Shown here one piece after another: positions 35,619 through 54,250 of a stretch of DNA of 64,000 bases (positions within the stretch are counted from its first letter, which is position 1; each line of letters starts with the position of its first letter). Below the pieces are notes generated by a model, which saw nothing but the letters and a program-made list of their open reading frames with translations, ran no database searches and had not been told where the DNA came from. The DNA is from a virus. Made by a program: the position numbers and the translations under genes. The DNA is taken from IMG/VR virus record IMGVR_UViG_3300045988_183789. One strand, given 5' to 3'.

Positions 35619-36506
35619 ATGACTTCTGAACAGGTTCGTATCGCACTCACCGCCAATGCCGTTACTCGCTCGACCCGTACCGGCTTCGATTTTGAGGACC
35701 CCTGCGGCAAGACGCTGGACGAATTCACCAAGGGCGCTACGCTTCAGTGCCTGCGTGTTGCCCAGCAGATGCAGCAGCCTGGCTTTGAAAAGGTGCTGGC
35801 TGCCCAGATTTTCCCGTGCTACACCATCGCCAACTGGAACCAGACCAAGGTCATCTATGATTTCGGCAAGGATTTTCTGGAGCTGCTGATGGATACCGAT
35901 GACCTCACCATCCATCGCGAGGTGCTGGAGCGCCTGCCGTTCAAGAACTTCTATGTGCCTCTGTACAACAGCGTAGACTACTGCGGCATGTTCGTACATA
36001 TCGAGTTTGATACAAAGACGGATGACACCTTCGTTGGCATCGTCCTCGTGGGCCCGGTCCAGAACGAAAAGGAGAACTTCGCGTTCCTGTCTCTGCCCGC
36101 TTGGATTAAGGAGGGTCAGAGCCTGACGGAGGCGACTCGCAGCACGAAACAGTACATCGAAAAAGCATCTTCGACTCGCGATAAAGATGACATCACTATT
36201 CCTGAAACGCTGGACGCTATCCCGTCTGTTTACGGCGAAGGCACGCCCTATGTCCGCCTCGCAATGCTGTGTGCCTACTACCTTGCCAGCAAAGGCGCAG
36301 AGATTCGTCTGGACAGTCCGAAAAAGGACGAGCGTCCTGTCTTTACGTTCAAGGGCCAGACCAAGAAAGTCAATATCAAGACCTTCGTGGTGGGCCATTA
36401 TCTGATGGAGCGTTACAAGAAGGAAGCGAACGGTAAGGCTCCCACCTGGCGGCACTATTGGTGCGGCAATGGCCGCGAGCGCCGTGAGTGCAAGTTCTCC
36501 TTTTGA
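35619..36506 (+). CDS. Hypothetical protein
   Basis: RBS GGAGGA. Confidence 0.45.
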   Translation: MTSEQVRIALTANAVTRSTRTGFDFEDPCGKTLDEFTKGATLQCLRVAQQMQQPGFEKVLAAQIFPCYTIANWNQTKVIYDFGKDFLELLMDTDDLTIHREVLERLPFKNFYVPLYNSVDYCGMFVHIEFDTKTDDTFVGIVLVGPVQNEKENFAFLSLPAWIKEGQSLTEATRSTKQYIEKASSTRDKDDITIPETLDAIPSVYGEGTPYVRLAMLCAYYLASKGAEIRLDSPKKDERPVFTFKGQTKKVNIKTFVVGHYLMERYKKEANGKAPTWRHYWCGNGRERRECKFSF

Positions 36507-38105: not shown

Positions 38106-38134
38106 TTGATGAATTGTGCGAATTGCAGATAATA
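38106..38134 (+). promoter_or_regulatory. GCGAATTG-box promoter, copy b
   Basis: TTGATG aattGTGCGAATTGcag ATAATA. Confidence 0.5.
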
Positions 38135-38166
38135 AAAATCAGATATATATTGGGAGGGAAAATGAC

Positions 38167-39444
38167 ATGTTTCCGTTTTTCAAAAAGAAGCAAGCGCCCG
38201 CTAATGTTCCTGAAATCATACCGATTCAGGAAGAAGGCGGTGTCTGCATTGCAAAGTGCTGGACAGGAAAAGAGGATGCCGATATAGTCGTCAACATGAC
38301 TGACGCTTCCAAACATCAAAGCTCAGTCATCTCCATTGTCGGAAGCCACGGCCAGGGCAAGGATTTTACTGGCAAGTTGATTCTTTACCGCCTTTGCAAG
38401 CAAGGAGCACAAGCTACTATCCTAACGGATGGGTTGAGCCGTGAAGAGTACGGCTATATGTGCGACCAGCTTGGCGGTAAGAACGTGATTATAGGAGAAG
38501 AAAACTCACATATCAACTTGTTCGACATTCGCAAGCCGAAAGAAGGCTCCCGTAAGTGTTCCGTTCTAACAAGAAAAGTACAGGAACTGCTCACAGTGTT
38601 CAGAGCAATGTATCCTGAGATGACACCAGAGCAAGCGGGATTGCTTGATGCGTTACTCTACCGCCTTTATAAGGTCAAAGGCATCACCTATGACAATGCC
38701 AGTCTTCTCGTGGAAGGCTCAGACCAGTACAAAGAGTTCCCGACTATAGAAGACTTTTATACGACCATTAAGCTTGCACATCTGAAAGAACTTGATGACT
38801 TCGCAAACGTGCTTTCACAGTTTGTAGATGGACCTTATGGCTGGTTCAACCATAAGACGGATGTTGATTGGGATAGTCCTTTCCTTGTGCTGGACTTTAT
38901 GAAATACAGGGGACAAATCGAAAAAGACAGTACGGCCAAGGACTTTATGATGGCCTATTGCTTTGAAATCCTCAGCGAGCGTATGCAGAACGAGGCGGAC
39001 AAGAAGGCTATTCTGATGCGGGATGTATTCTTTGGCGAGAACCGTGACGTTATGAAAAATGCTCCGTTTATGCTGGAGCGTGACACCACTTTGAGCTGGA
39101 GCAAACACCTCTGCCAGAACGCGATGCCCTGTGACTGCACCGTAATCACCGTTACCAGCGTGTTTAACGACGGTATAGACGATGCGTTTCTCCATGAAAT
39201 CATGGCTGATTCAGATGTACAGGTATACCACAAAATATTCAGCCATTTGGTTCCCAATGTGGCAAAAGCATGCCACTTGAGCGAAAAGAACGCAAAATAC
39301 GTCTCAGAGCTTCAAAGGGGACATGTCATTATTTTTGCGGATGGTAAGTGGACATGGAGCGATGTGAAGGCTGATGATGAAGAATATAAGATGATGACCG
39401 AATATCCTTCTGACATCAGAGTCTATGGGAGGGACTGGCAATGA
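38167..39444 (+). CDS. Hypothetical protein
   Basis: RBS GGGAGGG. Contains GSHGQGKD, a degenerate P-loop-like motif that is not a canonical Walker A. Confidence 0.45.
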   Translation: MFPFFKKKQAPANVPEIIPIQEEGGVCIAKCWTGKEDADIVVNMTDASKHQSSVISIVGSHGQGKDFTGKLILYRLCKQGAQATILTDGLSREEYGYMCDQLGGKNVIIGEENSHINLFDIRKPKEGSRKCSVLTRKVQELLTVFRAMYPEMTPEQAGLLDALLYRLYKVKGITYDNASLLVEGSDQYKEFPTIEDFYTTIKLAHLKELDDFANVLSQFVDGPYGWFNHKTDVDWDSPFLVLDFMKYRGQIEKDSTAKDFMMAYCFEILSERMQNEADKKAILMRDVFFGENRDVMKNAPFMLERDTTLSWSKHLCQNAMPCDCTVITVTSVFNDGIDDAFLHEIMADSDVQVYHKIFSHLVPNVAKACHLSEKNAKYVSELQRGHVIIFADGKWTWSDVKADDEEYKMMTEYPSDIRVYGRDWQ

Positions 39445-39866
39445 ATATCGCTTTATTCGCTATCTCAACCTTCATTGTCATCATCTGTATCGGCATACCG
39501 GTAGCCAAGCATCCTCACTGGTTCAACACATACGAAGAGCAGGTTCAGGCAGCAAAAGATAAAGGTTACTGTGCTATGGCTACGCCTGTCAAAATCCGGA
39601 ACTTGCCGTATGACTCCAGTGAACCCACCTATAAGAACTACAACTATTCTGTCGTATATCAATTTGAGTTTGAAGGCAGGATATATACAAAGCGCCGCCA
39701 ACAGAATGACTACCCGGAGCCAAGGATGTTCTATTTTCCGAGCGGGAACCCCAAAAGAGCATTTTGCTGTAGAGAAGACCAGCCTCTGACACTTGGCAGC
39801 TGGATTTCGGTGCTTATGCTTGTTGCCGTTGGTATCGTATATCGAATTCTATCTATATTTGTATAA
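39441..39866 (+). CDS. Membrane protein
   Basis: Two TM segments. Confidence 0.45.
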   Translation: MNIALFAISTFIVIICIGIPVAKHPHWFNTYEEQVQAAKDKGYCAMATPVKIRNLPYDSSEPTYKNYNYSVVYQFEFEGRIYTKRRQQNDYPEPRMFYFPSGNPKRAFCCREDQPLTLGSWISVLMLVAVGIVYRILSIFV

Positions 39867-39879
39867 AGGACTTTCACCC

Positions 39880-40716
39880 ATGACTTTCCCAATGTTTCTT
39901 TTGCTGCTCACAGTTTCTATCGTATTCCTTCTTGGATTCATCTGGTACTTGGTTTATGAAAACAAGATGCAGCAGCTGGTCCTTACTACCAGTACGCGGC
40001 TTCATGCACTGATTGAGCTGAACGGAAAATATACCTTCTACGATGTTCCGGAGATGGTAACTCGCAGATGGCAACTTGATACAAAGCCAAAATATGACCA
40101 TTTTAACTTCGAGAAGAACGTCTTTATGCAAGTCAGTAAGGAACGAGAAGAATTTGAAACGCTGTTGCAGCTCACAAGAGAAAATGCCAACTTGATGAAC
40201 CAATACCTCCATGATTTTGATAATTTGCCTCCGTACTTCGACGAGACAGAAGATTATGAGCCTACATGGCGCTCAAAGATGTATGCGAGACTCGAACGCG
40301 ATGAAGTCAAGAAAGAAGAACGCAACTGTCCGACTCCTACAACAGAACTGCTCCTGCGCTGTGCCAAGACTTATACTTCACCGCAGGGGCGTCGAAACTA
40401 TGGGGACAGCCAGGTTTATACCGCGAGTGAGATTGAGACTCTTATAAACGAGTCCTATCAGAAGGATAAAGAAAAGGAAAGCAAGGAATACCAGCGGAAA
40501 GCCATGACACCGTCCTTGCGATATGACATTATGAAGCGCGATGGCTTTAAGTGTGTGCTTTGCGGCCGCACTCCGAAAGATGGCATCACGTTACATGTTG
40601 ACCACATCTTACCTGTATCTAAAGGCGGAAAGACTGTGCCGTCCAACCTGCGGACCCTTTGCAGCATCTGTAACATTGGCAAGAGTGACAAGTACGATGA
40701 AAACGGTCTAAATTGA
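39880..40716 (+). CDS. Membrane-anchored protein with a C-terminal HNH nuclease domain
   Basis: N-terminal TM helix. C-terminal DGFKCVLCGR ... HVDHILPVSKGG ... NLRTLCSICN matches the HNH CxxC...HxxH...N...CxxC motifs. Confidence 0.65.
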   Translation: MTFPMFLLLLTVSIVFLLGFIWYLVYENKMQQLVLTTSTRLHALIELNGKYTFYDVPEMVTRRWQLDTKPKYDHFNFEKNVFMQVSKEREEFETLLQLTRENANLMNQYLHDFDNLPPYFDETEDYEPTWRSKMYARLERDEVKKEERNCPTPTTELLLRCAKTYTSPQGRRNYGDSQVYTASEIETLINESYQKDKEKESKEYQRKAMTPSLRYDIMKRDGFKCVLCGRTPKDGITLHVDHILPVSKGGKTVPSNLRTLCSICNIGKSDKYDENGLN

Positions 40717-40730
40717 AAGAGGTTATTTCT

Positions 40731-41621
40731 ATGTACAACTACGGGAAGCCGGTTAACTTCGACGACTGGCTGATTGACCTGCCGGATGAGTTCTCGTTCT
40801 GGCTTGAGGACCAAATGGCTATGATAACGCCATTGGATATTGTGCTGATGGCAGTAGGCTTGCTGGTTATTGTCGGACTCATCTGGTTTTTTATCACGCG
40901 TCAAGCCAAGAAGAATGTGGAGCAGACAAGCAATATCCTCGAAGGGCTGCTGGAAATCAATCAGGGCTACGTGTTCTATGATGTCGATGCGGAAATCACG
41001 CTGCAGTATCCTCAGGATACGAAGGAAACTTATGAAAATGCTTCTTTTGACCGGCTCTTTATGAGCATCGTCCAGAAGAAAATTCCGGCATTTGAGGAGG
41101 TCTTCGGCTGGGCCAATAGCAATAATATCCAGTTTGGAATGTACAAAAAAGAACTCGAAGGCCTGCCCAACTGGACGGAGAAAGATGACGATTGCGGCCG
41201 CCGAGTGCCGTTTTGCCTCTATCACAAGTGGGAACAGAAGCTCGTGAACGATGCGGTGTATGGCACACCTGTCACACAGCCTGTCTTCCATGTGGTCAAG
41301 CAGTATACTCCGGCAAGAGGGAAAACACTCTCTGAGACCCGTACATATTCTATGGCAGAGGCCAAGGAGTTTGTCAGGCTTGCAAAGGAACACGAGGCAG
41401 AAAAGAAAAGACGGGCAGCAGCTCGCAAAGCCGCATCTGCCGAACTCCGTTACTCAGTCCTGCAGCGTGATGGGTTCCGCTGCACTCTCTGCGGCCGCTC
41501 ACCAACGGAGGGTGTGAGCCTTCATGTTAAGCCCATCATGCCGCTTCCTAAAGGCGAGAAGCCTACGGCGGATTATTACCGCACCGTCTGCAATGAATGT
41601 TTGGAGGTGAACCAGGTATGA
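40731..41621 (+). CDS. Paralog of the upstream HNH protein with a degenerate HNH motif
   Basis: Same architecture, TM then C-terminal DGFRCTLCGR. The catalytic HVDHI is replaced by HVKPI, so it is probably inactive. Confidence 0.55.
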   Translation: MYNYGKPVNFDDWLIDLPDEFSFWLEDQMAMITPLDIVLMAVGLLVIVGLIWFFITRQAKKNVEQTSNILEGLLEINQGYVFYDVDAEITLQYPQDTKETYENASFDRLFMSIVQKKIPAFEEVFGWANSNNIQFGMYKKELEGLPNWTEKDDDCGRRVPFCLYHKWEQKLVNDAVYGTPVTQPVFHVVKQYTPARGKTLSETRTYSMAEAKEFVRLAKEHEAEKKRRAAARKAASAELRYSVLQRDGFRCTLCGRSPTEGVSLHVKPIMPLPKGEKPTADYYRTVCNECLEVNQV

Positions 41622-42054: not shown

Positions 42055-42489
42055 TTACAGGGCATGGTGGCACACATGCTCAAAATCTACGAGCAGTTCC
42101 TTCGTCGCTTTCTGCACATACGCCGAAGCCGACTCATCATGGCTTTTTTCAGATGAAAGTATAAGGCACGGACGGTTCATGGCGGTCGAACCGCTACAGT
42201 GGCAAGAGAGTAGCTCTTCTCCAAACTCATAATTGAGGATAGCAGTAAGGCATTCGCCCATCAAGGCACAATCGTCATCCTTTGCCAAAAGCCTATCCGC
42301 TTCATCGTAGTTAATGCGGCCGTTATCGAGACAAATACGGTCAAGGAACACCCGAACATTATCCGAAGCGGTCATTGCATCTATAGTCTGATGATGATTC
42401 TCAAGGAAAATGTAAAATATCAGCTTTTCGATTTCATCCAGGTAAAAGCCAAAACCAGTGATACGGGTCTTAGTATCAGTTTGTGTCAT
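42055..42489 (-). CDS. Hypothetical protein. One of only four minus-strand genes in the window
   Basis: Reverse-complement RBS AAGGATGAGG. Confidence 0.45.
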   Translation of the reverse strand: MTQTDTKTRITGFGFYLDEIEKLIFYIFLENHHQTIDAMTASDNVRVFLDRICLDNGRINYDEADRLLAKDDDCALMGECLTAILNYEFGEELLSCHCSGSTAMNRPCLILSSEKSHDESASAYVQKATKELLVDFEHVCHHAL

Positions 42490-42679
42490 AAAAAACGCCT
42501 CATCCTTCTTTTCTACTTGCATTTATAACACATGGAATACAAAAATGCGAGATTTGACGCTGTTTATTAAAAGCGTGATAACAATTTCTAAAGAAACCAT
42601 GTACATGTCGTAAGGTTCCTTGTTCATCCGTTCGAATTGAGTATCATTGTAGGTAGACTAAAGTAAAGGAGAAACGCAC

Positions 42680-43291
42680 ATGAGTGAGTTCAACCCGAAA
42701 AACGACCCACAGGTCCAGGCATACATTGCCTTCGTGGAAGACTTCAAAGAGTTTATCCGCAGAGAGGATAGAGTCGGCAAAGACCAGTACAAGCTGGTCA
42801 ATCTCTATGGTGAGAAGGGCTTGGATGACCCTGATGCCAAGATTGTGACTTTGCAGGACCAGAAAGCTCAGCTGCTTGCTGCGACCAGCTGTGACCTTGC
42901 GAAAGCAACGCTTTGGCTGTATTACTTCCGCGACAAGTTCGCAGACATCGAGCTTGTTGACATCAGTGGGGAAGACTACACTTCCTATCTGAAGCAAATC
43001 ATCCATAAGCTGAACGATGATACAAGTCCTCTCTACCTGGATGCGTGGGACATGCTTATTCGCCTTGTGGCAGAAGACTGTATGCCGGATGCCTATGTTG
43101 ACGACAAGAAGAAGTGGCAACTGGTATACACCAACATGTACTGGAATGTCCACCTGGCGATGAAGTCTCTCAAGACGGGTGGTTCCATCAAACGCATGGT
43201 GGACAAGCTGCCGAAGGATGCCGATAAAATCGGGAACCTGGCTTTCAAGTATTTCAATGATGCACTCATTGCCTACGAGATGCAGCCTTGA
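42680..43291 (+). CDS. Hypothetical protein, paralog A of the gene at 44488
   Basis: RBS AAAGGAGA. N-terminal FxxFI...G...YKLVNLY shared with 44488. Confidence 0.5.
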   Translation: MSEFNPKNDPQVQAYIAFVEDFKEFIRREDRVGKDQYKLVNLYGEKGLDDPDAKIVTLQDQKAQLLAATSCDLAKATLWLYYFRDKFADIELVDISGEDYTSYLKQIIHKLNDDTSPLYLDAWDMLIRLVAEDCMPDAYVDDKKKWQLVYTNMYWNVHLAMKSLKTGGSIKRMVDKLPKDADKIGNLAFKYFNDALIAYEMQP

Positions 43292-43316
43292 ACATCCGTG
43301 CGAATTGAATAGAATA
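43288..43316 (+). promoter_or_regulatory. GCGAATTG-box promoter, copy c
   Basis: TTGAAC atccGTGCGAATTGaat AGAATA. Confidence 0.5.
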
Positions 43317-43336
43317 AGACATGTAAGCTAAATAAA

Positions 43337-43364
43337 AGAGCGGCTTGACCGCTCTTTCTTTTTA
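43337..43364 (+). terminator. Leader hairpin plus T-tract between promoter c and the gene
   Basis: AGAGCGG-CTTGA-CCGCTCT followed by TTCTTTTT, 23 nt before the start codon. Confidence 0.5.
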
Positions 43365-43386
43365 CTACGCAGAAAGAGGTTTCGGC

Positions 43387-44049
43387 ATGAACAAAAACAT
43401 CCATTATACCGCAACGCACATCACCTGTGAGTTGGAAAACGACATCTACAATTACATCGAAAGCCAGCTGGCAAAGAAGCTCGTACAAAAAGCTGCCGCC
43501 GGGCGCAAGCAGTATTTCTATTATGGCAACGACTCGGACAGCACGGCCATGCAGGTTGCGATGACCAATGAAGAAGCAAAGCACCTGGCTGAATCTTCTG
43601 TCTTGCTTGCCGAGCGGCTCATGGTGCTGTACAACATGACGGCTGGTTTCAAGAACATCGAGATGCAGGCAACCACCGGCAAGCCGAAAGAAGCTGCCTG
43701 GCCCAAGGTCTACAATACGATGGTTGCGAAAGGTTCGCCCTTGTATGATGAGCCGCTCCTCGGCCGCGTTTACAACCTGCCAAGCTACTATGCTTTGAAG
43801 AAGTACGACCGCCAGCTGATGTCCGACATGTATGAAGCCATGATGATGGTTGTGTACGATGCGGCCGTCGAGCTCAAAGGCCAGTGGGATACAAACGGCA
43901 AGATGACCTTGCAGAACCCTCTGTTCGCACATACCGCCGTGACCGTCTTCAACGGTCTGCTTGGTGCCACGACGATGCGCTACAAGGTTCTCAAAGATAC
44001 GCCCGCCGGGGTTATGGAGGGAATGCACATTGAATCTGCTACGGTTTAA
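43387..44049 (+). CDS. Hypothetical protein
   Basis: RBS AAAGAGG. Confidence 0.45.
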   Translation: MNKNIHYTATHITCELENDIYNYIESQLAKKLVQKAAAGRKQYFYYGNDSDSTAMQVAMTNEEAKHLAESSVLLAERLMVLYNMTAGFKNIEMQATTGKPKEAAWPKVYNTMVAKGSPLYDEPLLGRVYNLPSYYALKKYDRQLMSDMYEAMMMVVYDAAVELKGQWDTNGKMTLQNPLFAHTAVTVFNGLLGATTMRYKVLKDTPAGVMEGMHIESATV

Positions 44050-44473
44050 GAAAGACGACCCGACCTACGGGTTTCTGAGCAATTATTATCCTTGCTCCTT
44101 TGTGCTGGATGGAATCTACTACCTCAACGCGGAAGCAGCATTCCAAGCCCAGAAGGTCCCGATGGAGGAGAGACGTCAGTTTGCCTGCCTCATGCCGAAC
44201 GAGGCGAAGAAACTCGGCCGCCGGGTCCAACTTTCTCCAGATTGGGACGAAGTTCGAGACGAAGCGATGCGCCGGGTGCTGTATGCCAAGTTCAGCCAGA
44301 ACGAGGAGTTCAAACAGCGACTGCTCGCTACAGGCGACCGGCACATTATCGAAGACACGACCGGCTGGCACGATAACTATTGGGGGGATTGCCAGTGTCC
44401 CAGATGCAAGGGCGTTCACGGTCAGAACAAACTGGGCATGATGCTCGAAGAAATCAGGACCAAATTAAGATAA
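44030..44473 (+). CDS. NADAR-domain (YbiA/DUF1768) ADP-ribose-processing hydrolase
   Basis: RBS GGAGGGAA lies 6 nt upstream of TTG. YGFLSNYYPCSF ... YLNAEAAFQAQK matches the NADAR signature. Confidence 0.65.
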   Translation: MNLLRFKKDDPTYGFLSNYYPCSFVLDGIYYLNAEAAFQAQKVPMEERRQFACLMPNEAKKLGRRVQLSPDWDEVRDEAMRRVLYAKFSQNEEFKQRLLATGDRHIIEDTTGWHDNYWGDCQCPRCKGVHGQNKLGMMLEEIRTKLR

Positions 44474-44487
44474 AAGGAGAACTCAAC

Positions 44488-45249
44488 ATGAGCGAACAGA
44501 ATACGATTGCCGAAGAGCAGCAGAAAGCCTACGAGGCCCTGGCGCACGACTTTACCGACTTCATCAAGGCAAAGGTACGCGCAGGGGAGAATAGCTACAA
44601 GCTGGTGAACATTTACAAGCAGTATGACATCGATGCTGACAGCTTCGATACCGTCAAACTGGATGATGCCAAAGCCGAAAAGCTGGCGCTCATCTGCATG
44701 GACCTTGCCAACGCTATCCTGTGGCTTCACTGCCACCGCGATGAGTTCAAAGATACCGAGTTCATTGAGGTCGTGAACGGTAACTACCCGAAGTATGTCG
44801 ATTCTGAAGGCAAACATCCTCTCTTGATTTCTGGAAATCTGAGTAACTATCCTGTCAACTCTCTCAAGTCCCTGCTTCGAGGTCTGACAACGACTATCGA
44901 CCAGTATGAACAGCCGCAGCATCCGAAAGCGCAAAAGGATGCTGCCCATATCAATAAGCACGCCATGCACCTTGTGAGACTGTATTACACAGCATTTGAC
45001 ATTCTGGAGCAAGGACGCATCATCACCCGTCGGGACAAGGAGCACGAAGAACTGCTGGCTATCCGCAACGGCAAGTATATGCGTGAGGATGGGTCGTATG
45101 CACCCGAATTCTTCGAGTCTGTGGACCAGCTTGAAACAAGATTTCAGCGAGACGTGAAGAAAACGGAACTCCCGGCAAAACCCGATTTTGCGAAAATCGA
45201 GGAGTTGCTCGTAGAAATCAACAAATCCTATCTCCATCGAATTATGTAA
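44488..45249 (+). CDS. Hypothetical protein, paralog B of the gene at 42680
   Basis: RBS AAAAGGAGA. Confidence 0.5.
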   Translation: MSEQNTIAEEQQKAYEALAHDFTDFIKAKVRAGENSYKLVNIYKQYDIDADSFDTVKLDDAKAEKLALICMDLANAILWLHCHRDEFKDTEFIEVVNGNYPKYVDSEGKHPLLISGNLSNYPVNSLKSLLRGLTTTIDQYEQPQHPKAQKDAAHINKHAMHLVRLYYTAFDILEQGRIITRRDKEHEELLAIRNGKYMREDGSYAPEFFESVDQLETRFQRDVKKTELPAKPDFAKIEELLVEINKSYLHRIM

Positions 45250-45460
45250 AACCGCAAAGAAATGCGGTGATAGCAAACAAAAATAACGTAGAACCAATAG
45301 TGGCAGAATATACAATGCTGAATATATGCAAAATTCTGTGTTATGTAATTTTGCCGTAGCAGCCCGTGTGACTGCGTAAGATTGAACGTCCATCCGTAAA
45401 TCACGGGTGGGCGTTATTTTTGTACCCGCAAAACTCAAAACAAAATACGATAAAAAGTGC

Positions 45461-45488
45461 TTGACCATCTGTGCGAATTGCCTACAAT
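45461..45488 (+). promoter_or_regulatory. GCGAATTG-box promoter, copy d
   Basis: TTGACC atctGTGCGAATTGcc TACAAT. Confidence 0.55.
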
Positions 45489-45513
45489 TGATATTGTAAG
45501 ATAAATAATTGTA

Positions 45514-45555
45514 CCCCGACGGAACACCATGCGTGCCTGCCGGGGTATTCTTTTT
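45514..45555 (+). terminator. Leader hairpin plus T-tract between promoter d and the helicase gene
   Basis: CCCCGACGG ... CTGCCGGGG followed by TATTCTTTTT. Confidence 0.45.
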
Positions 45556-45586
45556 GCGTTAATACGTATTCTGGAGGATTCAAACC

Positions 45587-48415
45587 ATGACTCTCGCTAA
45601 CCTGTCTACTGAGCAACAGGACCTTGTACGCCTGGCTCTCGCAGGCAGAAATATACTCTGTGACGCTTGCATCGGCAGCGGTAAAACATCGACCATCAAC
45701 GTGTTGTGTAACGAGTTTGACGCCTCCAAACAGATTCTGTACCTGACCTATAACCGTCTGCTAAAACTCGACGCGCAAGAAAAAATCCTAAACGACAATG
45801 TTGTCGTCCAGAACTACCACGGCTTTGCTTCAAAACTCCTCTATCGGCACGGAGTTCGTAATATTGGACAGGGCGAGCAAATTAAGAAGGCGCTCGATTT
45901 GCATGTTCCGGTCGGTCGCTATGACGTGCTCATCATCGATGAGTACCAAGATATTAACGAAGAAATCTCTCGAATGCTTGAATATATTAAGGAAGAAAAC
46001 CCCACCATGCAAATTATTGCGGTGGGGGATATGGCGCAGAAAATCTACGACACCACATCTTTGGACATCTGGAACTTCATCAACAAGTTCCTCGGCAAAC
46101 ACACGCAGGTCAACTTTACCCAATGCTTCCGCTTGTCCCACGACTTGGCCGAGCGCCTTGGCACTATCTGGAATAAGGAAATCAACGGAGTCAACGAGAA
46201 CTGCAAAGTCAAGTCCATGACGAAGGATGAGGTCATCGAGTACCTCAACGATTTGGACCCGAAGAACGTCCTATGCCTTGGCGCTCGTACCGGCCAGATG
46301 GCCGCAGTTTTGAATGCCTTGGAAGAGCGCCCCGATAACCTTTACGACAAAAAACATGTTTATGCCAGCATCAAGGACAACGACGGCGAAAAAAGCGTAG
46401 CTCCGAACAGCAATGTGGGCATCTTCACAACATTCGACGGCAGCAAGGGCATGGAACGTCCTATCTGCGTGGTCTTCGATTTCACCGAGGATTACTGGGC
46501 AACCCGTATGCGTCAGCCGCTGACTCGCTACGAAATCATGCGCAACCTCTTTTGCGTAGCTGCGAGCCGTGGCAAGCAGGAGGTCATCTTCGTCAAACCC
46601 GATAAGCGTAGCCTCGTGAGCGACAAGACACTGATGACCCCTGTCAAGACTCGCACCACCTTTAAGGACAAATTCGACATCAGTGAAATGTTCGATTTCA
46701 AGTTCGATGAAGATGTGGATGCGTGCTACAACCTTATCACGGCCAAGCAGGTATTCCAACAAGACCAGACGGAAATCGAAATCAAGCACTCCGATGCGAT
46801 GATTGACCTGTCGCCCTGCATTGGCATCTACCAGCAGGCAAACTTCTTCGATTTTTACGACATCGACAGCGCTATCGCCTTCTTCATGTACCTACACAAG
46901 GACAAGATGGCGAAGGTTCCAACCACTTGGAAGTCCGTTGAACAAAAAGTTCTGTTTCTTACAATGCTGATGACGAGCCAGGACCGTTATATCAAGCAGG
47001 TAGAACTGCCTTTCATCACGCCGGAACAGGCAAAAGCGCTGACTGACCGCCTCTCTACGATGTTTACCCATGATGAAGAGGTTCAGGAACGCGCAGAACT
47101 AAACATTGTGGTAGAACAGGATGAACTGAAGCAGCCTGTCACGTCGCTTATCGTTAGCGGTATGGCCGATGTAGTCAAGGACAACAAGGTCTATTATCTG
47201 AAGTTCGTATCAAACCTCGCACACAAGCACTTCATCCAGTGCGCCTGCTATATGCTCGCCACAGGCCTTCCTACCGGCGTTCTTTGGAACATCCGGGATA
47301 ACACGATGTATGAAGTCGAAATTCCGGACCGCACGGCTTTTCTGAATGCGGTAGTGAAGTGCATCACCAAGGGCGTCTATACGGAAGCTCTCGCCTACAA
47401 TCTGGAGAAAGACTACTCCCAGAGCCTTGACACGATTCTCGACCGTGTTATGTCCGACACTTCGCTGCCTGAATTTGATACCGGCGGCAACATTGTTGAG
47501 GAAAAGCCGCAGGACGAAGGTGTTGCTATTATCAAGCAGGGTGAGCAGTATGTCATCCTGGATGCGGGAACTCGCTCTATCGTGGGCGGTACGGCAGTAA
47601 ACGGCTATGACACAATTCTGGCCGCCTGCGAAGCATACGTGAAACAGAATAAGAAAGCTACGGAAGAATCGGTCAATAAGAAAGAACTTCTCCATGTCAT
47701 TGAACAGTGGCTTGATGACCATGCAGAGTTCGAACATCAGATGTCTTGCGTGGCAGTCGATATTGAGAACCATGTCGGCCCCTATTCGGGTTATTCGAAC
47801 TTCTCTACTTATGTGGTTCGCAAGATGCTTAAAGACTGCGGCTTGGTCATCGACTTCAATGAGCGTCAGCTTCTCAAGGTCTGGAAAGTCCGCGAGAAGA
47901 AGCGTCCAAAGCCTGTTACCCAGTACAGCCCGGCTCAAGCCTCGAAACAGGTGGTTTTGAATCCGGCTGATAGTTTCGAGCAAATGCTGAACAGCTTGCA
48001 GAGCATGGGTGTGGATGTCAAAGTTGCAGAAGAAACCGCAACCGAACCCTATGACTTCTCCCAGTACAAGCGTCTGCCGCCGGAGCGTAAGACGTATGAC
48101 TCTGAACCTGTCGGCTGGTGGAAGGACGGAGAAGAGCAGTATAAGAAAGAAAAAGAAGCGTTTCCGGCCGAATATCGAGTTATTCGCTCCTCCAAGCTAT
48201 CTAAACCCGGTGATGTACGCTATGTCATCATGGAAGAGGATTCCAACACTGTGCTGGATGATGCAAACGGGTATGGGTACAAATCCGTTCAGGCTGCGCA
48301 CAAGGGCTATGGCTATAAGCGGCGCAACGGTGGCAGTTTTGGTTCCAAGAAGAAAGAAAAGAGTGAAGCAAAGCCTCAGACCACGGGCGAGCAGCTTTCG
48401 TTTGGAGGTCTGTGA
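45587..48415 (+). CDS. Superfamily-1 (UvrD/PcrA-like) helicase with a ~600-aa C-terminal extension
   Basis: RBS GGAGGA. Walker A CIGSGKTST and motif II LIIDEYQD. Confidence 0.65.
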   Translation: MTLANLSTEQQDLVRLALAGRNILCDACIGSGKTSTINVLCNEFDASKQILYLTYNRLLKLDAQEKILNDNVVVQNYHGFASKLLYRHGVRNIGQGEQIKKALDLHVPVGRYDVLIIDEYQDINEEISRMLEYIKEENPTMQIIAVGDMAQKIYDTTSLDIWNFINKFLGKHTQVNFTQCFRLSHDLAERLGTIWNKEINGVNENCKVKSMTKDEVIEYLNDLDPKNVLCLGARTGQMAAVLNALEERPDNLYDKKHVYASIKDNDGEKSVAPNSNVGIFTTFDGSKGMERPICVVFDFTEDYWATRMRQPLTRYEIMRNLFCVAASRGKQEVIFVKPDKRSLVSDKTLMTPVKTRTTFKDKFDISEMFDFKFDEDVDACYNLITAKQVFQQDQTEIEIKHSDAMIDLSPCIGIYQQANFFDFYDIDSAIAFFMYLHKDKMAKVPTTWKSVEQKVLFLTMLMTSQDRYIKQVELPFITPEQAKALTDRLSTMFTHDEEVQERAELNIVVEQDELKQPVTSLIVSGMADVVKDNKVYYLKFVSNLAHKHFIQCACYMLATGLPTGVLWNIRDNTMYEVEIPDRTAFLNAVVKCITKGVYTEALAYNLEKDYSQSLDTILDRVMSDTSLPEFDTGGNIVEEKPQDEGVAIIKQGEQYVILDAGTRSIVGGTAVNGYDTILAACEAYVKQNKKATEESVNKKELLHVIEQWLDDHAEFEHQMSCVAVDIENHVGPYSGYSNFSTYVVRKMLKDCGLVIDFNERQLLKVWKVREKKRPKPVTQYSPAQASKQVVLNPADSFEQMLNSLQSMGVDVKVAEETATEPYDFSQYKRLPPERKTYDSEPVGWWKDGEEQYKKEKEAFPAEYRVIRSSKLSKPGDVRYVIMEEDSNTVLDDANGYGYKSVQAAHKGYGYKRRNGGSFGSKKKEKSEAKPQTTGEQLSFGGL

Positions 48416-49035
48416 TGGGAAATAGCGATACTAAGATGAAGCCAAGACATAACGACGTCCATAAATCCTTGAAAGAACGTAATGACGCGATTTACCGAGA
48501 TTATATGGATGGCGTGTGTGTCGTGGATTTGGCTGATAAATACGGGGTGACTGGCTATAGGATTGTACAAATCCTTCGCTCAGACCCCAAATACGGTTTG
48601 GAAAAGACGCGCTTAAACTGGCAGAAAAACACACAGGCAAAGCGTGCCAGGAACAAGAAAATCTACGAAGATTACATAAACGGTGTGCCTTACATCAAAA
48701 TTGCCGAAAAGTGGGGCATGACTAGCAGCGGCATTCAAGCAATCGCAAAGAAGTACCAAAAAGACCTCGAAATCAACTTCGAGAGAACCGTTCGCTCTGC
48801 ACCCAAAACAAAGAAATCCGAAATCGATTGGGCCGAGAGGAAAAGACGATTGATTGCCCAAGCCAGAGCTATTCCAAATCAGTCTCTATCGAATCTTGCT
48901 AAGCAATATGGATTAACGCCAAATGAAGCAAGACAAATTTTAAGAGAAGCGGGCATTATCAAGTGCCCTCGCAACGACTTGAGTGATGAAGCTCTTTGGG
49001 CCGGAATCGGAGGCAGCTATGACGACATCTATTAA
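48415..49035 (+). CDS. Protein with three tandem sigma-70-region-4-like HTH repeats
   Basis: Three ~55-aa repeats, each I/L-YxDY..G.....IA.KYG....I.QI. Paralog of the gene at 57587. Confidence 0.5.
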   Translation: MGNSDTKMKPRHNDVHKSLKERNDAIYRDYMDGVCVVDLADKYGVTGYRIVQILRSDPKYGLEKTRLNWQKNTQAKRARNKKIYEDYINGVPYIKIAEKWGMTSSGIQAIAKKYQKDLEINFERTVRSAPKTKKSEIDWAERKRRLIAQARAIPNQSLSNLAKQYGLTPNEARQILREAGIIKCPRNDLSDEALWAGIGGSYDDIY

Positions 49036-49303
49036 GTTTGCAAAGGCTGTAACTGAGTCTAATCTTCAAGGAAATACGGACAAAAACTTTTCGCGTGAGG
49101 AAACCGCCAGCATCCAACACACAAACGCAGCCATCCGCCAGGCGGTCAGGCAGCATGCCGTTTCACGTGCTAAAAGAACACGGCACACATCCATGCAAGT
49201 GGCTCTTGATGCAGAACGTGACGCTTTGCTGCAGGCAGCCAAGAGCCATGCTCAGCAGTATGCAGAGTCAGAGGCTGCGGTAAAGGACTGCATTGTTAAA
49301 TAG
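49019..49303 (+). CDS. Hypothetical protein
   Basis: RBS GGAGG. Confidence 0.4.
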   Translation: MTTSIKFAKAVTESNLQGNTDKNFSREETASIQHTNAAIRQAVRQHAVSRAKRTRHTSMQVALDAERDALLQAAKSHAQQYAESEAAVKDCIVK

Positions 49304-49319
49304 GGCAGGGAGGTACAGA

Positions 49320-49604
49320 ATGGTCAAAATTTACGGTTCGAGCGATGACCTCGTCTGCTTGGACAATTCAAATTATGCAGTGGATGAAATCGGCTGCTAT
49401 GATGTGGCCGGTGTCTGGCTCTTTCTGGAAGATGACACGGTTTTGTTCGTCCACTACACCGACGGTATCTGGCGCATTGATGTGGAGCAAGAAGGCTCTA
49501 TGCCTTATGAACACCATGTTTGCGCTGGAACGGATGAGGACGACTATAGTGATGTTTTCCTGACAGAATCTGATGTCACAAACCATGAAATTGCCTACAA
49601 ATAA
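49320..49604 (+). CDS. Hypothetical protein
   Basis: RBS GGGAGG. Confidence 0.4.
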   Translation: MVKIYGSSDDLVCLDNSNYAVDEIGCYDVAGVWLFLEDDTVLFVHYTDGIWRIDVEQEGSMPYEHHVCAGTDEDDYSDVFLTESDVTNHEIAYK

Positions 49605-49617
49605 AGGAGAAAACGAC

Positions 49618-50124
49618 ATGAACCTTTCAAAAATCAAGATGATGTTCTTCGATTTTGATGATACACTGCTTATCCACTATCGGGAACATCGGCTCGATGC
49701 TACGGGAGAGGCCCACAGGGAACGGCTCCTGCGCCGGGAAAAAGAAACGAAGGACGGCTACCGAGTCTTTGATGAAATCGGTGAGCCCAATGACCTCATC
49801 CAGCACTTCCTTGAGAGCTGCCCCGACATTCCGAAATACTGCATCTCTTTTGTGCAGAACAGCATCACGCTGCCGTTCAAAAAACAATGGCTTGAAATGC
49901 ACTTTCCGGGCCGGTTCCATGACATGCTTGGCACATCCAGCCCGGAACGCAAAGTGACCGTTATGCAGATGTTTGCCAAAGTCTACGGCTTAGAGCCTTC
50001 CCAAATTCTCTTTGTGGATGACTACTTCAAGGCGGTTGACGCGGCCGCTGATGCAGGGTTCTGCGCCATGAGTACACAGGAACTGGTCAATCGGCAGTAT
50101 TCTGCGGAAAAGCCCGTCATCTAA
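49618..50124 (+). CDS. HAD-superfamily hydrolase
   Basis: RBS AAAGGAGA. Motif I FDFDDTL. Confidence 0.6.
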   Translation: MNLSKIKMMFFDFDDTLLIHYREHRLDATGEAHRERLLRREKETKDGYRVFDEIGEPNDLIQHFLESCPDIPKYCISFVQNSITLPFKKQWLEMHFPGRFHDMLGTSSPERKVTVMQMFAKVYGLEPSQILFVDDYFKAVDAAADAGFCAMSTQELVNRQYSAEKPVI

Positions 50125-50201
50125 TCCATCTCATTCATCGACAAATCACAGTAAATATAAATCAGTCATATTACATGCCTATAAGGCAGGAAGGAATCAC
50201 A

Positions 50202-51068
50202 ATGGGACGTTATAATTTTGAACAGCATACTCGTGACGGCTATGTCGTTACGCCCGCACTGGCAAAGCAGTGGCTGGAGAAGAACACCAATAACCGCAAC
50301 GTGAACTTTGCCAAGGTCAAGAAAATGGCAAAGGATATGCGCGAGGGTCACTGGGACACGACTCATCAGGGCATTGCGATTGCCACCGATGGCACGCTGG
50401 TCGATGGGCAGCACCGTCTGATGGCGGTGGTAGAGTCCGGCGTTACAGTTCGTATGAACGTGACCTTCAATGCGCCCAAGTCTCAGCACATCGATTCCGG
50501 CAACAGCCGCTCGATGGCGAACCGTGTCCAGATGTCAGACTATGACATGAGTTGGACCGACAAAACAATTCTCTCGGCAGCCAACCTTATCGGCCGTATG
50601 TTTTCCGGCTCCAATTTAAGCCATGAGGAAGACCTGACCGAGTGGCTCGCCAAGTATCGGCCTCAGATTGAGATGGTCACGAGCCATATTAAGCGTGGTT
50701 CGATGCGTGGCCTGTCTTCAGCCGGTATCACCGCCGCCATGATTGTGGCAGCGATGAACGATGTGCCCGAAGCCTATATCGCCAAGTTTCTCGAAGTTTT
50801 CTATAGCGGTTTCACGACCAATGAAGCCGAGCACTATGCCGTCATGCTGCGTGATGACCTGATTCGCAACAACACTTCCAAAACCGGCACACAGTATGCA
50901 AAGTATGCCTTCTACCGTACTGCGAACCGACTGAACCAGTATTATAAGACTGCCACCGGCCAGCGTGTCGCAAAGCGCATCAATGACGGTGATTTCCCGT
51001 ACAACATCTACGACGCCACGGGACGTATCGTAAAGCCTGAAGCCAAAAAAGCCAAGAAAAAGGCGTAA
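50202..51068 (+). CDS. ParB/Srx-superfamily DGQHR-domain protein
   Basis: RBS GGAAGGAA. Contains the VDGQHRL motif. Confidence 0.55.
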   Translation: MGRYNFEQHTRDGYVVTPALAKQWLEKNTNNRNVNFAKVKKMAKDMREGHWDTTHQGIAIATDGTLVDGQHRLMAVVESGVTVRMNVTFNAPKSQHIDSGNSRSMANRVQMSDYDMSWTDKTILSAANLIGRMFSGSNLSHEEDLTEWLAKYRPQIEMVTSHIKRGSMRGLSSAGITAAMIVAAMNDVPEAYIAKFLEVFYSGFTTNEAEHYAVMLRDDLIRNNTSKTGTQYAKYAFYRTANRLNQYYKTATGQRVAKRINDGDFPYNIYDATGRIVKPEAKKAKKKA

Positions 51069-51086
51069 CCTGAAAGGAGAACCCCC

Positions 51087-51212: not shown

Positions 51213-51878
51213 GTGGCTAAAACACAATTGACCCGCGAAATTGAGGTGGCGCTCCATAACTGGAATCCAACCAACTACGGCGGGTATAGAACGGATACAT
51301 TCCGCCAGGGCTTCGATGCTCTTGAAGTGCCTGTGGAGTGCGGCACGACACGCTCTGGGCTTGTAGATTTCGTCCGTGTGCAGGAGTGTTTTACTTCTGA
51401 GACAAAGTGTGGAACTTGCAAATTGTCGATGTACTCCGACGAGGATAAAGACCTCGTTATGCCGTCTATCGAACAATGGACGCAGGAAGTGAATTGTCCG
51501 AAGGACATCTCCAACTGGAATTTTCGCAACGAACCTTGCACCGAGCGGTTCTGTAGGTTGTATAAGACACAGCATCTCTACACGATTGATACCGTCATCA
51601 CCTGTGTAGAAATTAAAATCTCAGTAGGGGACTTTCACTCTGACCACGGGCACAACTTTGTAGGGCATTGCAACTACTATGCTATGCCGACGGCTCTCTA
51701 TAAAAAAGTGAAAGGCGAAATTCCCGATGGCATCGGTGTCCTGATTTACTATGACGGTGAAAGCACCTATGGTATCCGCAAGAAGGTAGAGTGCAAACCG
51801 CACCAACTCTCAGAAGAAACGCAAAAATGGCTTATCATGTCCGTTGCCAAAAAGCTGCCTCGATTCGTTAAGCATTGA
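51213..51878 (+). CDS. Hypothetical protein, possibly a PD-(D/E)XK-fold nuclease
   Basis: GTG start with RBS GAGGTAA. GLVDFVRV ... VEIKIS loosely resembles D..(D/E)xK. Confidence 0.4.
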   Translation: MAKTQLTREIEVALHNWNPTNYGGYRTDTFRQGFDALEVPVECGTTRSGLVDFVRVQECFTSETKCGTCKLSMYSDEDKDLVMPSIEQWTQEVNCPKDISNWNFRNEPCTERFCRLYKTQHLYTIDTVITCVEIKISVGDFHSDHGHNFVGHCNYYAMPTALYKKVKGEIPDGIGVLIYYDGESTYGIRKKVECKPHQLSEETQKWLIMSVAKKLPRFVKH

Positions 51879-53092: not shown

Positions 53093-54250
53093 ATGCAAAG
53101 CAAAAACACATTCTTGCGGAGAGCAGCGGCAGCGATTGCGGCACTCTTCACCCTCAGCTTCGCAGGCTGCGGTCAGACCCCGATTGATTCGGGTAGTCTT
53201 CCTGTATCCGGGGTCGTCTCAGAAAGTCCTGTCTCTGACAGCGAGCAGACGGCTGGCGTAACGGAAGACGGCAGCTTTACTATCCACTTCATTGATGTGG
53301 GGCAGGCGGACTCTGCTCTTGTTACCTGTGATGGGCATTCGATGCTCATTGACGGTGGCAATGTTGATGATTCTGACCTCGTATATTCTGTTCTGGAACG
53401 TGAGACAGACGGACATCTGGATTATGTTGTTGGCACGCACGCCCATGAAGACCATATCGGAGGTCTTTCCGGTGCATTCGAAGCCGTGACGGCTGATGTC
53501 ACGTATTGCCCTGTCACAGAGTACGACAGTAAAGCTTTTCGGAACTTCAAGCAGCGAGCGGAAGAAAGAGGCAACGGCCTTACGATTCCGTCGGTAGGGG
53601 ATACATTCTCCCTTGGCGATGCCGAAGTGACTGTTATCGCCGTGAACTCAGTGCCGGATGATACCAACAATACCTCCATTGTCCTACGCATCGTATATGG
53701 AGAAACCTCATTCTTGTTTACGGGTGATGCAGAAGAGCCTGCCGAAGATGTTATCCTACAGTCTGGACAAGACATCCAATCTACTGTTCTGAAGGTAGGG
53801 CATCATGGTTCTCGAACCTCCACATCCGAAGCGTTCCTCGACACAGTGAATCCAGCCTATGCTGTTATTTCCTGTGGCAAGGACAACAGCTATGGTCATC
53901 CACACGACATCACTTTGGCAAAGCTCCAGAGCAAAGACATTGAGGTTTTCAGAACTGACGAGATGGGAGACATCTACTGCACATCGGACGGTAAGGACGT
54001 CACTTTCACTTATGGCGAATATCACCAGGCGGCAGAAAGCACTACCACCGATACAGTCGAGGTCGAGGAGTCACAGCAAAAGGATACGACGGTCAGTACC
54101 TATGTCCTGAACACAAACTCTATGAAATTTCATAAGCCTGACTGCTCCGCCGTAGCTCAAATGAGCGATGCAAACCGCAAAGACTATACAGGTTCCCGCG
54201 ATGACCTAATCGAGCAGGGCTATACACCTTGCGGGTATTGCAAGCCGTAA
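53093..54250 (+). CDS. Metallo-beta-lactamase-fold lipoprotein with a Cys-rich C-terminal tail
   Basis: RBS AAAGGAGA. Lipobox LSFAGC. MBL motif GTHAHEDHIGG. C-terminal C...C..C. Confidence 0.65.
   Translation: MQSKNTFLRRAAAAIAALFTLSFAGCGQTPIDSGSLPVSGVVSESPVSDSEQTAGVTEDGSFTIHFIDVGQADSALVTCDGHSMLIDGGNVDDSDLVYSVLERETDGHLDYVVGTHAHEDHIGGLSGAFEAVTADVTYCPVTEYDSKAFRNFKQRAEERGNGLTIPSVGDTFSLGDAEVTVIAVNSVPDDTNNTSIVLRIVYGETSFLFTGDAEEPAEDVILQSGQDIQSTVLKVGHHGSRTSTSEAFLDTVNPAYAVISCGKDNSYGHPHDITLAKLQSKDIEVFRTDEMGDIYCTSDGKDVTFTYGEYHQAAESTTTDTVEVEESQQKDTTVSTYVLNTNSMKFHKPDCSAVAQMSDANRKDYTGSRDDLIEQGYTPCGYCKP

Follow-up and report, generated by a model that had tools for sequence, protein, structure and literature searches.

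The region described here lies between 42680 and 51068 of the window, which is the whole 64 kb stretch of DNA analysed; features are on the plus strand unless stated otherwise. A central gene (44030-44473) encodes a NADAR hydrolase of the YbiA subfamily, composed of a bare core domain of 147 aa. It matched Pfam PF08719 (E 5.2e-29, 102 bits against a cut-off of 35.1) and TIGR02464 (89 bits against 73.7), the NCBIfam family "riboflavin-intermediate N-glycosidase". PDB matches were YbiA 2b3w (E 1e-15) and NADAR 8bau (E 2.7e-14), with E. coli YbiA the closest solved structure, and the Pfam gp30.3 model gave 33 bits, below its 36-bit cut-off. The start codon is TTG, located 8 nt downstream of GGAGGGA. 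E35, K42, R64, W72, R76, E108, D115 and W118 align with E43, K50, R79, W89, R93, E125, D130 and W133 of the P. nicotianae NADAR (PMC11543638); the eight residues that contact ADP-ribose or act in catalysis in a solved NADAR are all retained. The earlier note had named this gene from the motifs YGFLSNYYP and AFQAQK, which we found in the product, and its call held in the HMM search. The assignment is solid, with the catalytic residues intact.

Two genes precede it. Gene A (42680-43291) encodes an acidic protein of 203 aa (pI 4.9), with no match in Pfam, NCBIfam, PHROG or PADLOC and only 17 homologue clusters. Gene X (43387-44049, 220 aa), located between gene A and the NADAR gene, had been overlooked before. 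In hhalign the A and X families aligned as homologues over 170 columns (probability 96%, E 3.9e-9). Judged from the alignments, gene A, its paralog and X make up one orphan, previously undescribed all-helical superfamily, with X as a second subfamily. The last 20 nt of gene X lie within the NADAR gene, an arrangement suggestive of translational coupling.

The gene following NADAR (44488-45249, 253 aa) is an in-frame deletion chimera, identified by blastn of related loci against the window. Its first 103 residues derive from the N-terminus of a full-length A paralog and residues 104-253 from the C-terminus of an RlaP nucleotidyltransferase, both halves being traced from translations of 557-1168 and 8656-9663 of the related locus L001. 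The junction is at 44790-44796, where the similarity is short and imperfect (GAAGTAT vs GAAGATG), and the gene is the remnant of an 8.3-kb deletion. Its N-terminal 104 aa are 40% identical to the same part of the gene A product (E 1e-22). The description of NADAR as flanked by duplicated genes holds only for the ancestral arrangement; the second copy here is a fusion remnant. Fuller copies of the element contain at the deleted site a full-length A paralog, a second X-like gene joined to a DarG-type macrodomain, a MazG-like gene and the RlaP nucleotidyltransferase.

The macrodomain of this long variant (L001 6699-7178, 159 aa) matched PDB 5e3b (E 2.5e-14), the DarG entries 5m31 and 5m3i (~1e-5) and the PADLOC DarG model (E 6.8e-14). 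In 45 of 46 IMG/VR loci an X-like gene was located directly before the macrodomain gene, the two overlapping by 4 nt in 43 loci, and this order is retained in three lineages. At 90% identity these loci fall into three clusters, of which two come from the window's own element lineage. The third, divergent lineage (L017) was found separately. Identity across lineages is 36-41% for the X-like proteins and 54-63% for the macrodomains. The pairing is not obligatory, because in L017 the NADAR orthologue (56% identical) lacks an upstream X and in L009 the macrodomain lacks an X-like gene. Among the scanned ORFs of the window and of the deleted segment in L001, no match to ADP-ribosyltransferase (ART) families was found.

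The GCGAATTG box occurs in nine exact copies, all on the plus strand, compared with 3.2 expected for both strands, and a count of nine was reached in none of 100 shuffles. Boxes with promoter context number ten on the plus strand and zero on the minus strand, all between 30 and 58 kb. Box promoters had been claimed for each operon of the block, and we located three, with boxes at 42632 (the TCGAATTG variant), 43300 and 45473. The first predicted promoter, TTGTTC-N6-GT-TCGAATTG-AG-TATCAT (42620-42647), precedes gene A; the second, TTGAAC-N16-TAGAAT with GCGAATTG in its spacer (43288-43315), overlaps the gene A stop codon; the third, TTGACC-N16-TACAAT (45461-45488), is followed by a leader hairpin and T-run at ~45511-45550. 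A terminator-like hairpin with T-run (43335-43357) would end the gene A transcript within the X-NADAR leader, and another hairpin (45385-45415) the X-NADAR-chimera transcript. The box has no inverted copy, and therefore these are ordinary double-strand promoters; Frpo-type ssDNA promoters were ruled out on the same ground. In the relative L013 a box promoter was also found upstream of conjugation-side genes, so the box may be the general promoter of the element instead of an establishment-specific one. The sole minus-strand gene near the block (42055-42522, 144-155 aa, called at 144 aa in L002) runs divergently to the first box promoter, and its product has no Pfam match.

The downstream operon begins with a UvrD-like SF1 helicase of 942 aa (45587-48415), which matched AAA_19 (E 3.6e-11), UvrD-helicase (E 5e-7) and phrog_1967, a DNA helicase family (E 5.7e-27), but no PDB sequence. 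A degenerate RecB-type PD-(D/E)XK segment at residues 498-571 was matched weakly (PDDEXK_3, E 8.6e-4), and relatives were found in 67 IMG/VR loci. The earlier description of a long extension agrees with the ~350 C-terminal aa, which have no match. The next gene (48412-49035) encodes a basic protein (pI 9.6) whose three Mor/CD3324-type HTH units, matched at three places, accord with its former description as a triple-HTH protein; it has a paralog at 57587-58111 and is a candidate regulator. Two 94-aa proteins follow, both left out of the earlier note. One is basic (49019-49303, called as a gene in L002) with no family match, and the other is strongly acidic (49320-49604, pI 4.05, net charge -19, matching phrog_10666, a family of unassigned function, at E 5.8e-6), possibly a DNA mimic.

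The HAD phosphatase reported at 49618-50124 (168 aa) remains a candidate: its sequence shows the DxDxT and VDD motifs, but PF00702 (E 0.004) and TIGR01509 (E 3e-4) matched below cut-off. It adjoins the helicase in most relatives. The basic 288-aa DGQHR protein (50202-51068, true start probably 50202) contains invariant N-x-R and DGQHRL motifs and matched phrog_5931, a family of unassigned function (E 2.7e-42). Its description as ParB-like is weakly supported, by a weak match to phrog_12305 (ParB-like, E 5.5e-4, residues 29-88) and by weak DndB matches in 5 of 24 homologues (best E 0.007), but there was no match in Pfam, NCBIfam or PDB. By its layout, an MmcB-like PD-(D/E)XK gene (51213-51878; PF06319 at 22 bits, exactly the cut-off; phrog_2776 E 1.7e-17) would share the transcription unit of the DGQHR-protein gene. 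All ORFs named previously were recovered at the same coordinates.

Judged from its gene content, the window is part of a very large (~210-237 kb) Firmicute-type conjugative element from gut bacteria. It is read as conjugative because the window encodes a coupling protein (PF02534, E 3e-49), a VirB4-like ATPase and an M23 hydrolase, with a T4SS pilin and a RecD2 helicase just upstream and a sortase downstream. The relatives are entered in IMG/VR as viral contigs, and the conjugative nature is therefore less than fully settled. From contig coordinates, the block is located mid-contig in contigs of 210-237 kb; the coupling-protein gene is 38-46 kb upstream of it. One gene orientation runs through the whole 64 kb, T4SS genes included, so orientation does not single out the block. 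We found no relaxase, oriT, ssb, ardA or psiB in the window and ~10 kb of flank on each side. These observations do not support the leading-region position proposed earlier. Other anti-defence-like neighbours are an AcrVA2-like protein, from a precomputed Pfam annotation, and a metallo-beta-lactamase protein that matched Apyc1 faintly.

Our best explanation, to which we give about an even chance, is that the block is a regulon of the plasmid-establishment type on a conjugative element, carrying orphan ADP-ribose hydrolases that resemble antitoxins. It would be part of a variable accessory region resembling the establishment regions of known plasmids, with several short operons under one element-specific promoter design (sigma-70-type -35/-10 with an invariant GCGAATTG spacer). 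The restriction of the ten same-strand box promoters to 30-58 kb supports this reading, in which the timing of expression is presumed. A parallel is offered by pLS20-family plasmids (EGeRS2/p576 repressor type; PMC8708921), whose establishment regulons also comprise several short operons. Their genes are highly variable and mostly unassigned or of anti-defence type, with a common regulatory sequence before each operon and apart from the conserved conjugation operon. The element differs in that its motif is GCGAATTG within the promoter spacer, its candidate regulators are HTH rather than ribbon-helix-helix proteins, and leader terminator-like hairpins follow three of its promoters.

The functional core would be the X-NADAR pair, with NADAR acting as an orphan antitoxin-like YbiA-type glycohydrolase that removes ADP-ribose from guanine in DNA. 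Such activity could protect the element DNA, single-stranded in transfer, against DarT1-like toxins, or others that ADP-ribosylate DNA, encountered in a new host, and in the undeleted element the DarG-type macrodomain would do likewise for thymidine-linked ADP-ribose. We infer the NADAR substrate from family membership: all four NADAR subtypes assayed, YbiA included, hydrolyse guanine-ADP-ribose in vitro, though this does not guarantee in-cell rescue from a given DarT1 (PMC11125620). The stand-alone NADAR probably strips DNA-linked ADP-ribose and so neutralises DarT-type toxins. The anti-defence function suggested previously has become more plausible with the retained residues, the absence of ART matches in the scanned ORFs and the macrodomain in fuller copies. 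A close known system is AdfN (gp30.3 of T-even and other phages), also a stand-alone mobile-element NADAR without a DarT partner and with the activity predicted here, ADP-ribose removal from the element's own DNA; neutralisation of DarTG1 has been shown for orphan phage NADARs, which are proven anti-DarT1 factors (PMC11825919). However, the window NADAR is a YbiA-type enzyme whose last strand carries Glu where phage gp30.3 has His (PMC11125620), and it is located on a conjugative element and apparently coupled in translation to an extra protein.

With identical enzymology, the hydrolases might be orphan immunity proteins of benefit to the host, guarding the host cell and not the incoming DNA in particular against DNA- or RNA-ADP-ribosylating toxins of competitors or other mobile elements. 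Stand-alone bacterial NADARs have been discussed in this role (PMC11825919), and the element is rich in other host-benefit-type accessory genes. We consider this unlikely. Sequence by itself does not distinguish it from the establishment reading, but the AcrVA2-like and other counter-defence-type neighbours and the establishment-like promoters fit element protection slightly better.

Under the establishment reading, each hydrolase would be translationally coupled to a member of the new helical family, most likely a specificity or toxin-binding factor. DarT1-NADAR (DarTG1) and YarT-YbiA (PMC11543638, PMC11125620) also combine a NADAR/YbiA hydrolase having conserved catalytic residues with a second gene in a tight cassette. 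In contrast, the window pair contains no ADP-ribosyltransferase, X has an all-helical orphan fold with no ART-like neighbour, and the N-terminal ssDNA-binding extension of DarT1-linked NADARs is absent. DarG of DarTG2 has one domain for hydrolysis and another that binds the toxin, and speculatively the X-like protein and macrodomain could be its split analogue; however, the long-variant macrodomain lacks the DarT-binding C-terminal domain, has no adjacent DarT, and its gene is deleted from the window. There is only a very small chance that the X-NADAR and X-like-macrodomain pairs are toxin-antitoxin or addiction modules, with X the toxin and the hydrolase the antitoxin, serving element stabilisation or abortive infection. 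The tight overlap of the gene pairs, the antitoxin role of NADAR and macrodomains in DarTG1/2 and of YbiA with YarT, and weak NADAR matches to the candidate-defence models PDC-M42C and DS32_2 agree with it.

The clustering of candidate anti-defence genes on one strand and a UmuC-type Y-family polymerase in the same accessory region recall leading-region anti-defence islands (PMC11541004), but ssb, ardA, psiB and a Frpo-type promoter were not found in the window; NADAR and ADP-ribose are not mentioned in the main text of that paper. As an alternative to an anti-defence island, there is, as for the toxin-antitoxin reading, only a very small chance that the block is an anti-phage defence island, protecting host and element, built from the helicase-nuclease, ParB/DndB-like, HNH and metallo-beta-lactamase parts. 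The helicase has GajB-type matches, the metallo-beta-lactamase protein matched LmuA and DRT-associated models, and DGQHR proteins are known from Dnd-type defence systems; but the GajB matches are limited to the generic Walker B region (residues ~110-157), and no complete known system was recognised, the partners GajA, DndCDE and DarT not being found. Least probable is a metabolic YbiA-type N-glycosidase detoxifying riboflavin-pathway intermediates or small molecules among unrelated cargo, as the TIGR02464 score and the closest structure would allow, since riboflavin genes are absent nearby, the NADAR gene is on a mobile element and overlaps an orphan gene, a DarG-type macrodomain occupies the analogous cassette of the same island, and YbiA itself hydrolyses guanine-ADP-ribose in vitro (PMC11125620).

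All open reading frames named in the earlier note for the block at 42680-51068 were present, and the NADAR assignment of the gene at 44030-44473 was confirmed. Its product passed the curated threshold of PF08719 (102 bits against a cut-off of 35.1, E 5.2e-29) and that of TIGR02464 in NCBIfam (89.2 against 73.7 bits), and matched E. coli YbiA (2b3w, E 1e-15) and P. nicotianae NADAR (8bau, E 2.7e-14) in a PDB sequence search. The start codon is TTG at 44030, preceded by a GGAGGGA ribosome-binding site. Eight ADP-ribose-contacting or catalytic residues have been named (E43, K50, R79, W89, R93, E125, D130 and W133; PMC11543638), and alignment to 8bau showed that all eight are kept in the window protein, as E35, K42, R64, W72, R76, E108, D115 and W118. 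Glu instead of Asp or His in the last strand and a bare core domain are features of the YbiA subfamily (PMC11125620); from the Glu of IIEDT in its last strand, we assign the window NADAR, a bare core domain, to this subfamily. No adjacent DarT toxin gene (DUF4433 or ART fold) was found, neither gene A, gene X nor the other open reading frames scanned gave an ART or DarT match, and none of those scanned matched any ADP-ribosyltransferase family. The NADAR gene is located on a mobile element, in a conjugative context and without a cognate toxin among the open reading frames scanned, as would be expected of an AdfN-like orphan.

The description of the NADAR gene as lying between duplicated genes holds in part. 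The flanking paralogs, gene A (42680-43291) and the open reading frame at 44488-45249, are 40% identical over 104 residues (E 1e-22), but a 220-aa gene (X, 43387-44049) had been overlooked and the downstream copy is not intact. X lies between A and the NADAR gene and overlaps the start of the latter by 20 nt. The family profiles of A and X align with each other (hhalign probability 96%, E 3.9e-9, 170 columns) and each recovers the other family in the window; by this comparison A and X are related and form one superfamily. It is very rare, with 13 X representatives among 1.84 billion proteins and 17 A clusters, and showed no match in Pfam, NCBIfam, PHROG or PADLOC, or in PDB when the A/X alignment was used as a profile. 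An AF2 model of X from its sequence alone (pLDDT 39.7) was discarded for an alignment-based model (pLDDT 80.8, pTM 0.80), which is all-alpha with one hairpin; its structural neighbours included none that was convincing and none that was ART-like. The charge of X (pI 6.5) gives no support to DNA binding. A 205-aa neighbour in L001, a locus with the long form of the element, was undetectable as a member of the superfamily (hhalign probability 2.5%).

The window was found to carry a deleted form of this region. Contigs with an identical helicase gene contain 8.3 kb extra between the NADAR and helicase genes, and the open reading frame at 44488-45249 begins with residues 1-103 of a full-length A paralog (203 aa) and continues in frame with the final 150 residues of an RlaP nucleotidyltransferase of 335 aa. 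Only a short imperfect sequence similarity (GAAGTAT vs GAAGATG) exists at the junction, 44790-44796. Among contigs spanning the interval, the deleted form occurs only in the window and one related locus (L002), and the long form in L001, L003-L008 and the close IMG/VR relatives L025, L026 and L069. A second X-like gene, 24% identical to X (E 8e-10), lies in the deleted segment, with a 159-aa macrodomain gene 4 nt after it and then a MazG/PRA-PH-like gene and the RlaP gene. The macrodomain matched SCO6735 (5e3b, E 2.5e-14), DarG macrodomains (5m31/5m3i, about 1e-5), TARG1 and the PADLOC DarG model (E 6.8e-14). With a NADAR and a DarG-type macrodomain, the undeleted element therefore has both known chemistries that reverse ADP-ribosylation of DNA bases, and a member of the orphan family lies directly upstream of each hydrolase gene. 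Relatives also encode chimeric proteins of this kind: an X::RlaP fusion (P0010), a surface protein joined to X (P0004) and a possible X::HNH fusion (P0006). We discounted the last as a sign that DNA enzymes are targeted by X, since chimeras left by deletions are common here (window 44488-45249, P0010, P0004).

The helicase recovered 67 IMG/VR loci, of which 46 contained a macrodomain gene. An X-family gene was located directly upstream in 45 of these 46 (4-nt overlap in 43, 5-nt gap in two), which represent three clusters at 90% identity, two of them of the window's own lineage; the sole exception has a truncated macrodomain. L017, the third divergent lineage, was identified separately. Identity between lineages is 36-41% for the X-like proteins and 54-63% for the macrodomains, so that the partner diverges more quickly than its enzyme. 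The pairing has exceptions: the macrodomain of one related locus (L009) has no X-like gene, and the NADAR orthologue of L017 (56% identical) has a C-terminal extension and no X. Across the IMG/VR loci (L025-L091) the order X-like, macrodomain, MazG, helicase, HAD and MmcB-like is a widely kept core, with the ParB/DndB-like gene and RlaP only in some lineages. In L024, another relative, AAA_15/AAA_21 and RloB genes (2421-4375, minus strand) form an opposite-strand insert between RlaP and an A-family gene, resembling an OLD/abortive-infection-like defence pair.

For the function of the block, we give about even chances to an orphan antitoxin-like role in counter-defence. The NADAR would strip ADP-ribose from guanine on the element's own DNA, and the macrodomain, where present, would do likewise for thymine. 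Single-stranded DNA is the substrate that DarT enzymes modify, and conjugative DNA enters the cell in this state; we infer that this DarT activity is tied to entering conjugative DNA. Orphan NADARs remove ADP-ribose from DNA for phages (PMC11825919), and the same action is proposed here for the element's DNA. X would most plausibly be an accessory factor of the hydrolase. As less probable rivals, the hydrolases could act as orphan immunity for the host, the NADAR could have the metabolic role of YbiA, or the block could be a defence island. That X and NADAR form a toxin-antitoxin pair with X as the toxin is disfavoured by the predicted fold of X, and X as a DarT-like toxin was rejected on its all-helical model with no ART-like neighbour.

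Within the counter-defence role we might speculate further, although we hold this to be rather unlikely, that A and X are previously unrecognised partner or neutraliser modules for DNA-ADP-ribose hydrolases in a two-chemistry counter-DarT system. X and X-like proteins would bind the attacking ADP-ribosyltransferase, or target a bare hydrolase to modified DNA. They would thereby provide in trans the function of a domain of known proteins: an X-like protein would stand in for the toxin-binding domain of DarG, or X for the N-terminal extension of DarT1-linked NADARs, which the bare-core window NADAR lacks. Giant gut conjugative elements would then possess a two-pronged guanine and thymine counter-DarT system with a dedicated regulon. 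To our knowledge, counter-DarT functions have been demonstrated so far in phages only. If the block has the counter-defence role favoured above, DNA ADP-ribosylation would be a barrier actively disarmed by large gut conjugative elements, and these elements would be a source of new hydrolase partners. The conserved X-like-then-macrodomain and X-then-NADAR cassettes offer a concrete hypothesis, open to cloning and testing.

Nearly all genes of the window are on the + strand. A conjugation apparatus of the Gram-positive type is encoded in the first 15 kb; among its components are an M23 peptidase, a VirD4/TraG coupling protein (PF02534, E 3e-49) and a VirB4-like ATPase. Directly upstream, contigs with the same genes contain a RecD2 helicase, a T4SS pilin and a functionally unassigned 1673-aa protein. 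The other 50 kb or so are accessory, including two calcineurin-like phosphoesterases, a Y-family polymerase, a YpsA SLOG protein, a flotillin, two HNH proteins, a sortase, a metallo-beta-lactamase protein, HTH proteins, an AAA ATPase and four tRNA genes. Helicase relatives are catalogued in IMG/VR on viral contigs, the longest of 389 kb; we treated the element as conjugative because no phage structural genes were seen among the open reading frames scanned. Identical backbone genes were found on contigs of 226-237 kb and one of 1.36 Mb, and a 75%-identical relative is located on a 224-kb contig of a Clostridiales MAG. Near-identity DNA searches with the interval from 42 to 52 kb of the window gave no match in the plasmid and phage record collections.

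The tRNA cluster (62455-63260; Thr-TGT, Asn-GTT, Met-CAT and Asp-GTC) lies inside the element, and element-type genes extend downstream of it in three relatives (L021-L023); at gathering thresholds Rfam revealed nothing in the window beyond these four tRNAs. A 442-aa protein (38116-39444) in the accessory region, with its own box promoter, is paralogous to the P-loop half of the VirB4-like ATPase (9799-12507; 26% identity over 413 aa, E 1e-29). Tandem paralogs with N-terminal membrane segments were located at 39793-40716 and 40713-41621 (29% identity, E 6e-38), the first with a C-terminal HNH domain and the second with no Pfam HNH match. A 295-aa protein (35619-36506) has a precomputed Pfam AcrVA2-like match (PF26125) that was not reproduced with local Pfam. 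The 385-aa metallo-beta-lactamase protein (53093-54250) showed a faint match to Anti-Pycsar Apyc1 and also matched the PADLOC LmuA and DRT-associated metallo-beta-lactamase models.

The GCGAATTG box occurs in nine copies, always on the + strand, compared with 3.2 expected on both strands. When a promoter-like setting was required (TTG upstream, a -10-like hexamer 2-3 nt downstream, one mismatch allowed), ten sites were found on the + strand (30088, 30977, 38118, 42632, 43300, 45473, 52946, 54435, 56934 and 57483) and none on the - strand; a looser box pattern gave nine sites against 0.34 in shuffles. The box is located in the spacer of a promoter that is otherwise sigma-70-like. Three box sites delimit the transcription units of the block: one with A only, one with X, NADAR and the chimera, and one that starts with the helicase and probably runs as far as the sortase (about 52.9 kb). 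The sites are restricted to the accessory region (30-58 kb) in the window's element, with none found among the T4SS genes of the window (1-30 kb) or in L010, a locus upstream; in the 75%-identical relative, the pilin gene and others are also preceded by variant boxes. One regulatory sequence stands ahead of several variable operons, as in the pLS20/p576 type. In pLS20-family establishment regulons, such operons share one sequence and a repressor leads to transient expression after entry (PMC8708921); they are the nearest published parallel. Two paralogous HTH proteins, at 48412-49035 and 57587-58111, are candidate regulators of the putative box regulon, and the common promoter offers a way to catalogue all of the element's accessory regulon. 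TGTA about 6 nt after the -10 is common to several box promoters. The 5' leaders of three of the ten contain a GC-rich hairpin with a U-run (43335-43357, about 45511-45550 and about 57535-57565), within about 15-40 nt of the predicted transcription start and with modest fold z-scores (-1.4 to -1.8), which may reflect attenuation or antitermination control.

The earlier note had further proposed a leading-region-like island, and the hallmarks of such a region were not found. No ssb, psiB or ardA gave a Pfam match among the open reading frames scanned in the window and its about 10-kb flanks, and neither a relaxase nor an oriT was detected in the window or the about 10-kb flank on each side. The upstream 10 kb of the relative L013 contained DUF3854, S26 peptidase, YqaJ and RecD2 genes and no relaxase, and the downstream 10 kb had no relaxase. 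Frpo/ssi-type single-stranded (hairpin) promoters were rejected because the box has no inverted copy. By contig coordinates, the block is near the middle of contigs of 210-237 kb, with the coupling-protein gene 38-46 kb upstream of it. The uniform orientation does not single out the block because it covers the whole window.

Among the other genes of the block, the UvrD-like (SF1) helicase (45587-48415) was supported by AAA_19 (43.8 bits vs 25.1) and UvrD-helicase (30 bits vs 23), and the triple-HTH protein (48412-49035) by profile matches. The HAD candidate (49618-50124) scored below threshold with both PF00702 (17.9 bits, cut-off 26.4) and TIGR01509 (20.9 bits, cut-off 29.4); FDFDDT (DxDxT) and VDD motifs were seen by eye. 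In the ParB/DndB-like protein (50202-51068), N-x-R and DGQHRL motifs are invariant among homologues. It showed a weak PHROG ParB-like match (E 5.5e-4), and five of 24 homologues showed weak DndB matches (best E 0.007). The window protein itself matched neither ParBc (PF02195) nor DndB (PF14072/TIGR03187), and Pfam, NCBIfam, PDB sequence and PDB profile searches were all empty. In L002, otherwise 99.95% identical, this gene (14616-15489, window 50202-51075) is split into 165-aa and 131-aa open reading frames, by either a frameshift or an assembly error. The 94-aa protein at 49320-49604 (pI 4.05, net charge -19) matched phrog_10666, of unknown function, and would fit the profile of a DNA-mimic anti-restriction protein.
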